This document shows positions 56,470-61,528 of a stretch of DNA of 64,000 bases, one piece after another (positions within the stretch are counted from its first letter, which is position 1; each line of letters begins with the position of its first letter). The stretch comes from an uncultured Phycisphaeraceae bacterium (GTDB taxonomy: Bacteria > Planctomycetota > Phycisphaerae > Phycisphaerales > UBA1924). The stretch spans positions 212,975 through 276,974 of the forward strand of contig CAYVIJ010000001.1 of the NCBI GenBank assembly GCA_964451515.1, given 5' to 3'. Made by a program: the position numbers and the translations under genes. The notes beneath the pieces are model-generated. The model was not told where the DNA came from. It did no database searches and saw nothing but the letters and a program-made list of their open reading frames with translations.

Positions 56470-57459
56470 CTACGGCAGTTCGATCTCCAGCAGCGTCGCC
56501 TGTTCGCTCACCTTCAACTCGATTGTCTTCGCCGAACCCGGAACCAGCGCCGTCGTCCCCGAGCGCAAATCCGCGTCTTCGAGCCGGGCCGAGCCCTTGA
56601 CGCACATCACCGCCACGGGCCCTCCGCCCGTCTTGATCGTCCCGCTCTCGCCTGCCCCCAGATTCCGCTGGTGTACGGTGAAATACTCCGTGCGCACGAG
56701 TTCGCCCCGCCCGCTCCCCTCGAATCGCATCGGCGCCGCGTCCGCCTCGTCCTCGTGCTCGAAGTCGATGCACTCGAGCGCCTGCTGCACATGCAGTTCT
56801 CGCCCCGTCCGTCCCCAGTCGAAGACGCGGAACGTCGTGTCGCTCGGTGTCTGCACTTCCGCGACCAGCACGCCCGCGCCGAGCGCATGCGCGACGCCGC
56901 TCGGCAGGCTGTGAAAATCTCCCGCGCGCGCCGGAACCTGGATCAGATCCTTCTCGACCGATCCCTCCTGGATGTGCCGCGCGAACGTTTCCGCCGTCAC
57001 GCCGCTCCGCAGGCCCTTGTAGATGACCGCGCCGGGTTCCGCCTCGACCACCCACCAGCACTCCGTCTTGAGATGGCTCTCCGGATGCGCCGCCGCGTAC
57101 GCCGGACTCGGATGCGCCTGCACCGAAAGATGCTCCGCCGCGTCGAGATACTTCAGGAGGAGGGGGAATCCGCCGGTCGGCGTGGTCCGGGCGTCGCCAA
57201 GGAGATCACGCCCCATCTTTGCGATCGCTTCGCGCAGGGTCATGCCGGCGCAAGGCCCCGACTCGATGACGCTCCGCGCCGCGCCGCCGCCGCCTCCCGA
57301 CGCGCTTGTCGCGTCCAGATCCGCCAGCTCCCATGATTCGCCGATCCTCTTGGCTTCCGGGAGCGCCTTGCCGAACCGCTCGAGCCGACGCCCCCCCCAG
57401 ACCTTCTCGTAGAGCATCGGTCGCAGGATCATCGGCTCGCGGCTCACCTCGTCCATCAC
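56470..57459 (-). CDS. manA: Mannose-6-phosphate isomerase, type I
   Basis: The N-terminus is YEKVWGG...GESWEL. LSVQAHP is the Zn-ligand motif. Confidence 0.85.
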   Translation of the reverse strand: MMDEVSREPMILRPMLYEKVWGGRRLERFGKALPEAKRIGESWELADLDATSASGGGGGAARSVIESGPCAGMTLREAIAKMGRDLLGDARTTPTGGFPLLLKYLDAAEHLSVQAHPSPAYAAAHPESHLKTECWWVVEAEPGAVIYKGLRSGVTAETFARHIQEGSVEKDLIQVPARAGDFHSLPSGVAHALGAGVLVAEVQTPSDTTFRVFDWGRTGRELHVQQALECIDFEHEDEADAAPMRFEGSGRGELVRTEYFTVHQRNLGAGESGTIKTGGGPVAVMCVKGSARLEDADLRSGTTALVPGSAKTIELKVSEQATLLEIELP

Positions 57460-58697
57460 GCGCCCTCTCCCTCGAGCTCACGATCGGGCGCCTCGCCCGA
57501 CTGGGAAGCCGTCTTCCTCTTCTTCCGCGCCGCCTTGCGGACGACGCGCCGCAAATCCGCGACATCCATCTCGTCCACCCGCAGCATTGTCGACCCGCGC
57601 GGGCCCTTCTCATGCGGACCATACAGCGCCGAGCACAGCAGGCCGATCCGCTCCTGCTGGGGGTCCGTGAGCCGGCATGGGCCAAGCGATGACGCGATCG
57701 CGCGCACGCGCTCCACCACGTCCTCGATCGCTCGCTCATCCGTCTCACCCGCCAGATCCGCGACGCTGAACGCGTCGCCTTGTGCAAAAAGCGTGATCCG
57801 AGCCCAGCCGCCTCGCTCCGCCGGACCGACCGCGATCACCGCCAGCGACGCCAGGTCTCCGCACCAGGCGCACCCCTTCGATGCGAGCGCCTTCGCCCGC
57901 TCCAGACGGTCCTTCAGCATCGCCGCCTCCTCGAACTCCCGCGACTCCGAGGCCCGCTGCATCTCCTCCGCCAGTGCTTCCAGACTTCGCGTCGCCGGCG
58001 CCGCCGCGAACGCCGCCGCCGCGGCAATCCGAGCGCGGTACGTCTCCATCGCCTCGCTGCCGTCGCATGGCGCCGGGCACTTGCCCATCTCCTTGTACGC
58101 GCACGCCAGCCCATTCGGCGCCTGCACGAGGATGTGGTGATACCGGCACAGGTCGAAGAGGTCGTCCAGCGTCTCCGCCGCCCTCTGGGCCGCATGCTTG
58201 TCGCGGAAGGGGCCGATCAGCCGCCCCCGATCTGGCGGGGCGGCGGCGCCCTTGGTCGCCAGCCAGCCTGGGAGAGCCACCTTCGTCCAGCGGGGGAATC
58301 GCTCCTCCGGATCCACATGCAGGAACCAGCCCTGCCATTGCCGGCACGCCTCGCGGTGCGTCGCCTCCGCGAGATCCCGCGCCGTCTCGAGAAAGAGCAG
58401 ATCCCGCTCGAAGTCCGAACCCGCGGTCGCCCAGCGCACGCGCCCCACCACGGCTCGCAGATCCGCGCGGCGCGTCCGATCCTCCGACTGCTCCGTTGGC
58501 GTCAGCCGCCGCCGGATCGCATCGCGCACACTCGCCGTCGAGACGATCTGCACGACCTCGCCATCGTTTGTTTCGAGACAGACCACGCCCGCGCGCGCCG
58601 GCGCCAATTCCAACGACCATTCGGATGAATCGATCTCGTGGGGCGCCGACAGCCTCGACCGCAGGGCGGGCCAGCCGATCGCGCCGCCGCTTCGCAT
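57456..58697 (-). CDS. UvrC-like protein carrying only the N-terminal modules (GIY-YIG-like, Cys-rich, UVR domain) and lacking the C-terminal endonuclease/HhH region
   Basis: GPFRDKHAAQRAAETLDDLFDLCRY and CAYKEMGKCPAPCDG match the UvrC Cys-rich region. EEAAMLKDRLERAKAL is the UVR motif. The start was trimmed to ATG 58697. Confidence 0.5.
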   Translation of the reverse strand: MRSGGAIGWPALRSRLSAPHEIDSSEWSLELAPARAGVVCLETNDGEVVQIVSTASVRDAIRRRLTPTEQSEDRTRRADLRAVVGRVRWATAGSDFERDLLFLETARDLAEATHREACRQWQGWFLHVDPEERFPRWTKVALPGWLATKGAAAPPDRGRLIGPFRDKHAAQRAAETLDDLFDLCRYHHILVQAPNGLACAYKEMGKCPAPCDGSEAMETYRARIAAAAAFAAAPATRSLEALAEEMQRASESREFEEAAMLKDRLERAKALASKGCAWCGDLASLAVIAVGPAERGGWARITLFAQGDAFSVADLAGETDERAIEDVVERVRAIASSLGPCRLTDPQQERIGLLCSALYGPHEKGPRGSTMLRVDEMDVADLRRVVRKAARKKRKTASQSGEAPDRELEGEGA

Positions 58698-58752
58698 CAC
58701 GCCCGCCCGCGCGCGTCCGTCTCGCTCGTCCTGCCCGGCGCTGGACCGCCGC

Positions 58753-59286
58753 TCAAAGGACCATCCCCGTGATGCGGCTCTCGAAGACGAGCTTGCCGTC
58801 CACGACGCCCTGGACGTCGCTGATGAACCGCCGCGGGCGATACTTGACCGCCTGCGCCAGAAACAGGAGGTCGTCACCGGGACGGACCTGTCCCCGGAAG
58901 ACCGTGTCATCGATGCGCGTGAAACCGACGATGCAGGGCTCGCCGCGCCGGGCGTAGAAGAGGTAGCTCGCGAGCTGCGCCCCCCCTTCAACCATGAGCA
59001 CGCCTGGCATCATCGGTCGCCCGGGGAAATGCCCCTGGACCCAGAACTCGTCCTCCCGCACATGCTTGACCCCGACGGCCCGCTGGAAGGTCTTCTGATG
59101 CCAGATCACGCGATCCAGCATCACGATGTCTCCCCGATGCGGATTCCACTTCTCCAGATCGGCGCGCGACAAGGCCGTCTGGGTCAGGTCGATTCCGTCC
59201 AGATCAAAAAGGAGGGTGTTGGGGCGGCGCTGCGGGGAGCGCCCCCCCCCTCCCTCGACCATGAGTGCTGATTCGGCTTTGGTCAT
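58753..59286 (-). CDS. fabZ: FabZ/FabA-like hotdog-fold 3-hydroxyacyl-ACP dehydratase
   Basis: The N-terminus is WNPHRGDIVMLDRV. HFPGRPMMPGVLMVEGGAQL is the catalytic His motif. Confidence 0.7.
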   Translation of the reverse strand: MTKAESALMVEGGGGRSPQRRPNTLLFDLDGIDLTQTALSRADLEKWNPHRGDIVMLDRVIWHQKTFQRAVGVKHVREDEFWVQGHFPGRPMMPGVLMVEGGAQLASYLFYARRGEPCIVGFTRIDDTVFRGQVRPGDDLLFLAQAVKYRPRRFISDVQGVVDGKLVFESRITGMVL

Positions 59287-59459
59287 TCTTCGGTGTCGCG
59301 CTGCTCAAGCACCTTCTGACGCACGGCCTGGGCGGTGTTTTTCACCTCCTGCATGACTTTCCGCACGCGCGTCCCAGCGGCCTTGTTCCCGCCCTCCGCC
59401 TTCATCATGTCCTCTTCGATGTCCTTTAGGAGCTGCTTCAGGTGCTCGAATTCTTCCAC
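59283..59459 (-). CDS. hctA: Hc1-like histone H1-like nucleoid protein (58 aa). It is absent from the ORF track because it is under 60 aa
   Basis: It starts with GTG, and GGAGAG lies 7 nt upstream. The sequence EEFEHLKQLLKDIEEDMMKAEGGNKAAGTRVRKVMQEVKNTAQAVRQKVLEQRDTEE matches the chlamydial Hc1 N-terminal domain (LLKAEKGNKAAAQRVR...KTAK..RK). Confidence 0.5.
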   Translation of the reverse strand: MEEFEHLKQLLKDIEEDMMKAEGGNKAAGTRVRKVMQEVKNTAQAVRQKVLEQRDTEE

Positions 59460-59497
59460 GGGTGCTCTCCACGTTGGCGCATGGTTGATTCATTCGA

Positions 59498-59524
59498 CCC
59501 GAGGGCGGTGGCCCCTCCCTCGGG
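59498..59524 (-). terminator. Stem-loop downstream of the GGDEF gene (8-bp perfect stem, no U-tract)
   Basis: The hairpin is cccgaggg-(11 nt)-ccctcggg. Confidence 0.25.
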
Positions 59525-59585
59525 CAAGCGGCCACTATCTTCCCGAAATCCCCGCTGTTGGCAAGCCCAGCGGCTTACCCACCCC

Positions 59586-60947
59586 TCATTGGCCCTCCTC
59601 CGAGTCTGATTCCTCGCTCACTCGCCCGCATCGCCGCTCCGCGCCCGGGCCCAGCGTGATCACGTTTTTCCCCTGCCTTTTTGAAGTCATAGCGAGCTGA
59701 TCCGCACGCTCCAGCAGCTCCTCCGCCGTCGCGCCATCCCACGGAAAAGTCGTCATGCCACCCGAGATCGTGAGCGTCGATCCCGCCTCGACACCCAATT
59801 TTGGGAAGCGACGGTCGCAAATCGCCTGCTGGAACCGCCACGCGATGGTTCCGATCGACACCGGATGGCGGCTGCCCTCCTGCCGCGGACCGCGCGGCTC
59901 GTTGAACACCACCACGAACTCATCGCCCCCGAGCCGGCAGACCCGATCCGTGGGGCGGACGAGCGACGTGAGCAGCCGCACGGTCTCCTGGAGGATCTCA
60001 TCCCCCGCCGCGTGCCCGAAGGCGTCGTTGTACTGCTTGAACTCGTCGATGTCGAAGAGCAGGACCGTCAGATCATGGCGGGCCGCGCGGGCGTGCTCGA
60101 TCGCCGCTGGCAAGAACCGCTCGAGATACCGTCGGTTCCAGGCGCCGGTGAGGGGATCCGTGAACGCCGCGCGCCGGAGTTGACGCTGCTGAGCGCCTAC
60201 CGCAGCCCAGAGCGCCAGCCGCGTCGCAGCCTCCTCCAACTCGCCGCCGCCGATCCGCTCCCCGACCAGATGTCCGAAGACCACGCCATTTCGCTCGACC
60301 GCCGCGCCTCCCTCTCCCGCCTCGACCAGTCGCAGCCCAGGATCGCCATACGCCTCGCGCAACGTGCGAAGACCGACATCGACCACGTCGCCCCCGCTCA
60401 GGATCTCCTCCAGCCCGGCTCGTTCATCGATCGACGGGCGCGGCGTGCGATCCGAGTCCAGCGGAGGTGAAGGCGCATGTGTCTCGAGCGTGTTGCTCCC
60501 GGGTTCGCCGGGAGGCGCCTCCTCCGCTGCGTCCCCGGACGGCGCCGGAACATCGTCATGGATGAGACCGCTTCCCAGCGTGCGCTCCACGGCCCGCCGG
60601 AGCATCACATGGTCGGCGTCGGCGGCGATGAGCCCGTCATACGGGCCTCGATCGTGATGTTCGTCCCCAACCCCAAGGACGATGATCTCCTCGCCCAGGC
60701 TCTTGACGCCCGCCACGAAGGACGCCGACTCCTCCTCGCTCAGGGCGCCCGGGGCCACGACCACCACCGTGCGGGAGGGCGATTCGTCATCGATGGGCGA
60801 CGCCGCCTCTCCGATGGCGTCCAGCGCCGTCCGACTTCGCACCAGTTCGATCCCGGCGTCGCGCCGCAGCGCGCGCTCCAGATCGCTCGTTCCCGCCAGA
60901 ACAACGCGGAGATCCGCCGGCCGGTCCATCGCCTCGAGCCGGCTCAT
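59586..60947 (-). CDS. Diguanylate cyclase (GGDEF domain) with an N-terminal degenerate receiver-like domain
   Basis: The GGDEF motif is RLGGDEFVVVF. RYLE and DIDEFKQYND are upstream of it. Confidence 0.85.
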   Translation of the reverse strand: MSRLEAMDRPADLRVVLAGTSDLERALRRDAGIELVRSRTALDAIGEAASPIDDESPSRTVVVVAPGALSEEESASFVAGVKSLGEEIIVLGVGDEHHDRGPYDGLIAADADHVMLRRAVERTLGSGLIHDDVPAPSGDAAEEAPPGEPGSNTLETHAPSPPLDSDRTPRPSIDERAGLEEILSGGDVVDVGLRTLREAYGDPGLRLVEAGEGGAAVERNGVVFGHLVGERIGGGELEEAATRLALWAAVGAQQRQLRRAAFTDPLTGAWNRRYLERFLPAAIEHARAARHDLTVLLFDIDEFKQYNDAFGHAAGDEILQETVRLLTSLVRPTDRVCRLGGDEFVVVFNEPRGPRQEGSRHPVSIGTIAWRFQQAICDRRFPKLGVEAGSTLTISGGMTTFPWDGATAEELLERADQLAMTSKRQGKNVITLGPGAERRCGRVSEESDSEEGQ

Positions 60948-61528
60948 GGTCGGCCCCCATCCTCATCCTCAGGCAACGGGCCATCGGAGAGGAGCATCTC
61001 CAGCTCCTCGTCCGTCAGCAGCTCCCGGGCGCTCCGCGCCGCCTCCTCCTCCGCACCCTCCTCATCCGGGAGCGTCTCGGCGATCTCCGACGCCCCGGCG
61101 GGCGACAGATCGGCGCCGGCCAGGCGGAGTGGCGGCGTGTCGACGCGGCCTCCGAAGCCCATGCGACCGCCCGTTGGATCCATGCCGTTGGTGGTCGTCA
61201 CCTCCCCTCGATCAAGCACATACCCGCGCAGTTTCGGTTCCGAGTCGGCGTCGTAGCGCCAGCGGTTGACCTCGGGAGCGAAGCGCTCGACCGCCCGCAT
61301 GAGCTCCGCGGAGCGGTGGACCCGCTCGGGCTCGACCACCAGCAGGGTGACGATGCCCGATTCCTCCCGCGAAGCCCGCAGGACGTCCGCCATGGCCTGG
61401 AAAGGATCGCGAACCTCGCTTGCGGCCACCCCTCGACGCGCCAGCGACGCTGAGAGCGCCGACGGAACCCCCTCAGGCGCCAGCACGACGCACCGCACTT
61501 CGCCTCCGCTCTGCCCGGATTCCGACAT
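60944..61528 (-). CDS. Hypothetical protein with a receiver-like fold, paralogous to the diguanylate-cyclase N-terminus
   Basis: The architecture VRCVVLAP...TLLVVEPE is similar to the adjacent gene's N-terminus. It has an acidic C-terminal tail. Confidence 0.35.
   Translation of the reverse strand: MSESGQSGGEVRCVVLAPEGVPSALSASLARRGVAASEVRDPFQAMADVLRASREESGIVTLLVVEPERVHRSAELMRAVERFAPEVNRWRYDADSEPKLRGYVLDRGEVTTTNGMDPTGGRMGFGGRVDTPPLRLAGADLSPAGASEIAETLPDEEGAEEEAARSARELLTDEELEMLLSDGPLPEDEDGGRP

Follow-up and report, generated by a model that had tools for sequence, protein, structure and literature searches.

The stretch of DNA considered here, referred to as the window, comprises 64,000 nucleotides (nt) of contig CAYVIJ010000001.1 from an uncultured Phycisphaeraceae bacterium (GenBank assembly GCA_964451515.1), and its GC content is 67.4%. 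On the minus strand it carries a short gene, here called hc1, which encodes a 58-residue protein made up of the Hc1 domain (Pfam PF07432) and is directly followed by a gene for a FabA/FabZ-like dehydratase (Table 1). The gene had been pointed out in an earlier note, drawn from the sequence, as an unannotated homologue of histone H1 coupled to a fabZ-like gene. The analysis described below identifies hc1 as a real, conserved coding gene and somewhat favours a nucleoid- or RNA-associated role for its product.

The open reading frame (ORF) is present as the earlier note described it, with the same translation and a GTG start, and it is missing from the ORF list of the window, which starts at 60 amino acids (aa), because it has only 58 codons. 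The 7-nt distance given there for the Shine-Dalgarno (SD)-like motif is acceptable when counted from the core of the motif. The Pfam model of the Hc1 domain, a comparison that the note had proposed, matches over nearly its whole length (E=3.2e-22; 78.6 bits against a gathering threshold of 23.5; profile positions 1-56 of 57). Across 84 orthologous loci, the substitutions relative to the window fall on codon positions 1, 2 and 3 in numbers of 1017, 685 and 2447, and the ratio of synonymous to non-synonymous changes is 1421:1491 in frame, compared to 218:2697 and 162:2725 in the shifted frames. An SD-like motif (GGAG, GAGG or AGGA) is found within 20 nt 5′ of the homologous start in 81 of these 84 loci. 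Because such a strong motif lies upstream, efficient translation and hence an abundant Hc1 protein may be expected, and hc1 is probably well expressed.

The AlphaFold2 model, obtained with a 34-sequence alignment, confidently predicts an antiparallel hairpin that takes up the 58 residues (predicted local distance difference test, pLDDT, 94.1), in which helices 2-22 and 26-56 are joined by a GGN turn at residues 23-25. Invariant in the 34 sequences are D17, K20, A21, the whole run G23-R31, R33, M36, Q37, A43, Q44, R47, L51 and R54. The turn and the start of helix 2 thereby share the invariant motif G-G-N-K-A-A-G-T-R-x-R (G23, G24, N25, K26, A27, A28, G29, T30, R31 and R33). On a helical wheel, the nearly invariant K40 and the invariant R33, M36, Q37, A43, Q44, R47, L51 and R54 fall into one sector of 60-180 degrees adjoining the core of the hairpin. 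This conserved face of helix 2, as modelled, would be a mixed hydrophobic and basic surface of the kind expected for an intermolecular interface. The charge is -5.4 in residues 1-22 (helix 1), +5.8 in residues 23-50 and -3.2 in the last eight residues; the whole protein has an isoelectric point (pI) of 5.4 and a net charge of -2.4, and the median pI of the family is 8.0. A sequence search of the PDB with the Hc1 protein gave nothing relevant (best E=1.6). A likeness of the segment N-x-AA-x-TR-x-RK to the basic region of bZIP proteins was also considered and dropped on account of a spacing mismatch.

The relation of this protein to chlamydial HctA is confined to one part of the latter. The NCBIfam equivalog model of HctA (NF051889) scores 33.5 bits, below its cutoff of 100, and only positions 8-37 of its 121 are aligned, to residues 5-34 of the window protein. 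The window protein ends 2-3 residues past the Hc1 domain, and a K/A-rich tail is found in none of its close relatives. Judging from these comparisons, the protein is homologous to the N-terminal region of HctA, as the earlier note had recognized, and a true member of PF07432, yet it is no HctA. According to PMC3177640 and PMC3469542 (citing Pedersen 1996), both the likeness of HctA to eukaryotic H1 and its DNA-binding domain are located in the C-terminal tail. Because this only H1-like, DNA-binding part of HctA is absent, the name 'histone H1' is a transitive misnomer when applied to tail-less proteins. The wording 'histone H1 homologue' of the earlier note therefore has to be given up, and a Pfam scan of the window protein at E<=1 returned no linker-histone family. 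This point about the label is worth keeping.

The window protein is an ordinary addition to a family that has long been covered by annotation. The identical 58-aa protein (P0001) is present in public collections (NCBI and Logan), on a contig of 276,974 nt, in which its neighbours have been gene-called too; thus, the description of the gene as unannotated holds for the ORF list of the window but not with respect to gene callers, which predict exactly this protein. In itself, then, the identification of hc1 matters little: public records already contain it as a predicted and named gene, and the whole protein is covered by the Pfam model. A word-index search found 331 homologues, and among the 120 listed nearly all measure 57-64 aa and all carry a precomputed PF07432 assignment. 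Several relatives bear the NCBI name 'histone H1', among them RMD60044.1 (Planctomycetota) and MCR9216267.1/XHC25921.1 (Phycisphaerales bacterium ac7). An exhaustive profile search of 1.84 billion cluster representatives gave 1726 matches at E<=0.001, of which 394 reach E<=1e-10. The best 150 of the 1726 consist essentially of the Hc1 domain alone, with no Lys/Ala-rich tail. Since the homologues are so short and these top representatives domain-only, the tail-less form is the standard architecture of the subfamily: the earlier note was correct about the missing tail, and the 'minimal' version that it saw here is the usual one. Longer relatives with the N-terminal domain were inspected as possible carriers of HctA-like tails and rejected, their extensions not being Lys/Ala-rich and resembling read-through or miscalled sequence, while other long entries of the profile search have over-called N-termini.

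The distribution of the family is wider than the PVC superphylum, of which the earlier note had called it characteristic. A scan of GTDB species representatives gave at least 512 loci, and the best 80, which were examined, all belong to Planctomycetota (mostly Phycisphaerae/Phycisphaerales, Tepidisphaeraceae and Sedimentisphaerales). RefSeq, in turn, contains 56-61-aa 'histone H1' genes on megaplasmids of Cytophagales (Bacteroidota), in Fulvitalea, Aureibacter and Chondrinema, and two plasmids of Persicobacter carry unannotated Hc1 matches. Viruses encode the domain as well. A 462-kb uncultured phage (LR756500.1) has a stand-alone Hc1-like ORF at 253598-253768, a lineage of jumbo phages, the moraphages, encodes PF07432 (PMC12619734), and 185 viral contigs of IMG/VR contain Hc1 relatives, of which the best 80 (L094-L173) are 35-66% identical, have a GC content of 27-59% and are all tail-less. 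The moraphage study was the sole paper naming PF07432 that the literature search found; an Asgard preprint was dropped as a source on Hc1, 'HC1' being the name of a strain in it. PHROGs and PADLOC gave no match for the Hc1 protein, and no defence-system match was obtained for the hc1/FabZ-like pair or for the UvrC-like gene that follows it. The tail-less Hc1 family is thus widespread among cellular and viral sequences, and apparently no member has been characterized.

The most constant feature of hc1 in Planctomycetota is its dehydratase neighbour. In 76 of the best 80 GTDB loci, hc1 is immediately followed by a FabA-like gene of the same strand; three of the others have no downstream DNA, so the count is 76 of 77 informative loci. 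The pair is kept while the identity of the FabA-like protein falls to 32% and every other neighbour changes. The sole exception, L056 (3309-4174), has its FabA-like gene, accompanied by a phosphomannose isomerase (PMI) gene, on the opposite strand, upstream of hc1 and divergent from it. In the reciprocal direction, with FabA-like orthologues of contigs longer than 1 Mb as starting points, an Hc1 gene was found 5-31 nt upstream in three of three; the pair is followed there by unrelated genes, convergent in two of the three. The small ORF is conserved upstream of the FabZ-like gene in related planctomycete genomes, a check that the earlier note had proposed. The four-gene string hc1-fabZ-uvrC-like-manA which that note proposed exists in the window; because the other neighbours change across loci, however, the broadly conserved unit is only the hc1/FabZ-like pair. 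No FabZ-like neighbour accompanies hc1 in the Cytophagales loci or in any of the 80 viral contigs examined (the best 80 of the 185). In one of the Cytophagales loci, on plasmid pFA1 of Fulvitalea (L085, 3001-3991), the 'histone H1' gene is convergent to a gene with an acyl-acyl carrier protein (ACP) thioesterase domain; this is probably a coincidence, because two other Cytophagales loci have no lipid gene.

The partner itself has a conserved N-terminal extension of ~45 aa, and its catalytic residues, His86 (in GHFP) and Glu100, are invariant in the alignment of orthologues. It scores 91.7 bits against a cutoff of 113 with the FabZ equivalog NF000582 and 87 against 155 with TIGR01750, and none of 13 orthologues scores higher; its relatives are named generically in the sources ('beta-hydroxyacyl-ACP dehydratase' or 'hypothetical protein'). 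On these scores it is classed as a distinct FabZ-like subfamily below the FabZ thresholds. A probe with the E. coli FabZ sequence matched only this partner in the 64-kb window (35% identity), a result that refers to the window. The ATGA overlap of the two genes is seen as the earlier note described it and is common to the window and the L004/L088/L089 lineage, in which the first codons differ by synonymous changes. That the overlapping ATG is the true FabA-like start is supported by distant orthologues, which begin with MTQ-AES or MTQ-IET, like MTKAES here. Among the 76 loci, the gap between hc1 and the FabA-like gene is zero or negative in 8, 1-50 nt in 19, 51-150 nt in 36 and above 150 nt in 13, with a median of ~88 nt; in several lineages the two genes overlap (-4 or -20 nt), while the gap is usually 40-140 nt and reaches 477 nt. 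Since the spacing varies to this extent, the translational coupling claimed in the earlier note would be a local, lineage-specific feature and not a property of the pair in general. Co-transcription of hc1 and the FabZ-like gene across the family is plausible.

A promoter-like block is conserved upstream of hc1 between loci whose spacers are otherwise divergent. In the window, an alternative -10-like hexamer, GATAGT (59539-59534), follows after a 19-nt spacer. The pattern TTGCC-N16-21-AGATA is found upstream of hc1 in 10 of 88 loci, and in 6182 windows of 200 nt from these loci it has 10 matches, all of which could be the hc1 sites themselves. Many other loci (e.g., L007, L008, L020, L028, L033, L034 and L050) have TTGnCA-N17-TAGACT 30-90 nt upstream of hc1 instead. 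The recurrent TAGACT hexamer in metagenome-assembled genomes (MAGs) of Phycisphaerae may correspond to a promoter consensus used locally in this group. Because these elements are conserved, hc1 seems to have its own promoter, an assignment that follows from conservation; a simple scan for sigma-70 promoters and terminators found nothing at its threshold. Between the promoter-like block and the SD-like motif lies a GC-rich inverted repeat, which could be a putative leader stem-loop or the terminator of the upstream GGDEF gene. At this place L088, L004, L090 and L002 also have hairpins, which differ in sequence. The fold of the whole 5′ leader is not significant (z-score -1.27), and Rfam has no match over 58600-60000.

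The minus-strand genes of this part of the window begin with ftsW, murG, a hypothetical gene of 194 aa and a GGDEF gene; after a spacer of 126 nt they continue with hc1, the FabA/FabZ-like gene, the UvrC-like gene and the PMI-like gene, beyond which lies a convergent aminotransferase gene. The hypothetical ORF (60944-61528, minus strand) overlaps the start of the GGDEF diguanylate-cyclase gene (59586-60947) by ATGA, and the two lie directly upstream of hc1 in many loci of Phycisphaerales (L002, L004, L017, L025, L035, L041, L044-L046, L055, L091 and L092). Downstream, 55 nt separate the FabA/FabZ-like gene from the UvrC-like gene, whose best NCBIfam match, far below cutoff, involves the C-terminal half of PRK07883 ('DEDD exonuclease domain-containing protein'). 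Only some of the related loci have this gene between the FabZ-like and PMI genes.

Table 1. Coordinates of hc1 and the surrounding features in the window.
Feature	Position	Strand	Description
Promoter-like element	59534..59564	-	TTGCCA (59564-59559)-N17-AAGATA (59541-59536); conserved block, putative function
GC-rich inverted repeat	59498..59524	-	CCCGAGGG-N11-CCCTCGGG; between promoter-like element and ribosome-binding site; present in minimum-free-energy and centroid folds
SD-like motif GGAGAG	59465..59470	-	GTG 5 nt further on (7 nt from the GGAG core)
hc1-like coding sequence	59283..59459	-	58 codons, GTG start, TGA stop; translation MEEFEHLKQLLKDIEEDMMKAEGGNKAAGTRVRKVMQEVKNTAQAVRQKVLEQRDTEE; from sequence and ORF reading
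ATGA stop/start overlap, hc1/FabA-like	59283..59286	-	TGA 59285-59283, ATG 59286-59284
FabA/FabZ-like hot-dog dehydratase	58753..59286	-	177 aa; PF07977, 83.5 bits against 23
UvrC-like gene (UVR motif and UvrC_M)	57456..58697	-	413 aa; third gene of the string; found in some of the related loci only
Type I phosphomannose isomerase-like gene	56470..57456	-	last of the string; 1-nt overlap with the UvrC-like stop

Taken together, the reading that we consider somewhat probable is that of a self-associating hairpin which binds nucleic acid and acts as a small nucleoid- or RNA-associated protein, not as a polycationic compactor of DNA like HctA. The stand-alone hairpin would associate with itself through the conserved face of helix 2, which would fit the report of a 'potential N-terminal dimerisation site' in chlamydial Hc1 (Pedersen 1996, as cited in PMC3469542). 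Its basic and polar ridge would then bind a conserved macromolecule, most probably nucleic acid. An HctA-like compacting role is set aside because the Lys/Ala-rich DNA-binding tail is absent and the protein is net acidic. The stand-alone homologues of phages and Bacteroidota, which have no FabZ-like neighbour, argue for a general function that does not depend on FabZ. In Planctomycetota, hc1 would sit behind its own promoter-like element and would probably be co-transcribed with the FabZ-like gene, and in the lineage of the window the ATGA overlap may couple dehydratase translation to that of hc1.

It is important to note that several observations weigh against this reading. An acidic protein (pI 5.4) in a family whose median pI is only 8.0 makes a weak case for binding DNA in general. 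Experimental mapping of domains exists only for chlamydial Hc1, and it places nucleic-acid binding in the tail and not in this domain. Foldseek returned from the PDB only generic helical hairpins, none at E<=0.001 (best E=1.5), and the literature search found no paper on tail-less Hc1 proteins. Finally, a role in the nucleoid does not explain why the FabZ-like gene is near-universally adjacent in Planctomycetota.

This last point leads to the alternative that survives best, although we regard it as rather unlikely: the Hc1 hairpin would be a partner protein dedicated to the FabZ-like dehydratase, whether as small subunit, regulator or assembly factor, with no role in chromatin in planctomycetes. 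The same-strand pair in 76 of 77 informative loci, kept down to 32% FabA-like identity while the other neighbours change, and the three of three reciprocal look-ups with Hc1 5-31 nt upstream speak in its favour. So do the overlaps of -4 and -20 nt in several lineages, as a bicistronic layout would match the synthesis of the two proteins, and the conserved N-terminal extension of the FabZ-like subfamily could be the docking site. A net-acidic charge and a conserved face of mixed hydrophobic and polar character would also suit a protein interface. On the contrary, the same domain, with its invariant motif, stands alone among unrelated neighbours in Cytophagales and on all 80 viral contigs examined, and the Chlamydiae have it fused to a tail that binds DNA; moreover, the spacer is usually 40-140 nt and up to 477 nt long, and at L056 the pair is divergent. 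The stricter proposal that Hc1 was recruited in Planctomycetota as an obligate partner of the FabZ-like protein, either as a subunit with a regulatory or structural task or by linking the state of the nucleoid or of transcription to lipid synthesis, has in our estimation only a small chance of being right. If true, it would account for the lasting adjacency of the two genes across Phycisphaerae and MAGs labelled as other orders of Planctomycetota while the other neighbours change, and it would provide the first function for a tail-less Hc1 domain, unrelated to chromatin. Whatever its nature, the near-invariant hc1/FabZ-like pair is a testable lead to the function of both the Hc1 domain and an uncharacterized FabZ paralogue.

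A second alternative, quite unlikely in our view, is that of an RNA- or ribosome-associated small protein that modulates the stability of mRNA or its translation, as part of a response to stress or growth phase, for instance. The title of Pedersen 1994 (cited in PMC12619734) states that chlamydial Hc1 interacts with both RNA and DNA and that it represses translation in vitro. Basic helical hairpins are common as RNA-binding elements, the non-significant fold neighbours include ribosomal hairpins of the uL29/eL type, and the abundance suggested by the strong SD-like motif would agree with such a role. However, the fold matches are without significance (best E=1.5), the binding of RNA by Hc1 has not been mapped to the N-terminal domain, and no ribosomal or translation genes are linked to hc1 in any locus examined.

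That the window protein condenses the nucleoid as an analogue of the chlamydial histone, as its homology to the N-terminal region of HctA, the public name 'histone H1' and the framing of the earlier note could suggest, appears very improbable. The HctA model is matched at 33.5 bits against 100 and over positions 8-37 of 121 only, the Lys/Ala-rich tail is absent here and in close relatives, the net charge is -2.4, and the domain through which HctA binds DNA is, according to PMC3469542, the missing C-terminal part. The idea of a chance ORF without any gene, conceivable in DNA of 67.4% GC, where spurious ORFs are many and other-strand ORFs of 54-121 aa overlap the hc1 region, has a practically null probability and is regarded as refuted by the in-frame excess of synonymous changes, the bias towards third codon positions, the conservation of the start and of an SD-like motif, the Pfam match (E=3.2e-22) and hundreds of orthologues.

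The protein encoded by hc1 can be compared to several known systems. In Proteobacteria, skp (hlpA, 'histone-like protein A') is located upstream of lpxD-fabZ and encodes a secreted periplasmic chaperone of ~140-160 aa. The likeness is superficial, a small helical 'histone-like' gene upstream of fabZ whose product is a non-significant fold neighbour (rank 46), and a relationship was rejected, as the fold core is different and the Hc1 protein has neither a signal peptide nor sequence similarity to Skp. With the eukaryotic linker histone H1 only the inherited name is shared, since the window protein contains neither the winged-helix globular domain nor the Lys-rich tail. HctA/Hc1 of Chlamydiae (PF07432; NF051889) has the homologous N-terminal domain of ~55 residues, including the GNKAA..R.R motif; it differs in its Lys/Ala-rich C-terminal tail and its 121-position model, whereas the window protein is tail-less, 58 aa long and net acidic, and the hc1 gene of the window has a FabZ-like partner and is not known to be connected with a developmental cycle. 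The phage PF07432 proteins (moraphages, IMG/VR and LR756500.1) have a stand-alone Hc1 domain of the same length and an identity of 35-66%, but they are encoded on low-GC viral contigs with no FabZ-like partner. The short proteins named 'histone H1' in RefSeq and GenBank have 56-61 aa, a single domain and the same motif, and the window protein is a further member of their group. The window protein is 46-51% identical to those of Cytophagales (WP_338394740.1 of Fulvitalea, WP_309940808.1 of Aureibacter and WP_284688453.1 of Chondrinema) and 66-74% identical to those of planctomycetes (RMD60044.1 and MCR9216267.1/XHC25921.1). The genes of Bacteroidota stand alone among unrelated neighbours, while those of planctomycetes, like hc1 of the window, are paired with the FabZ-like gene.

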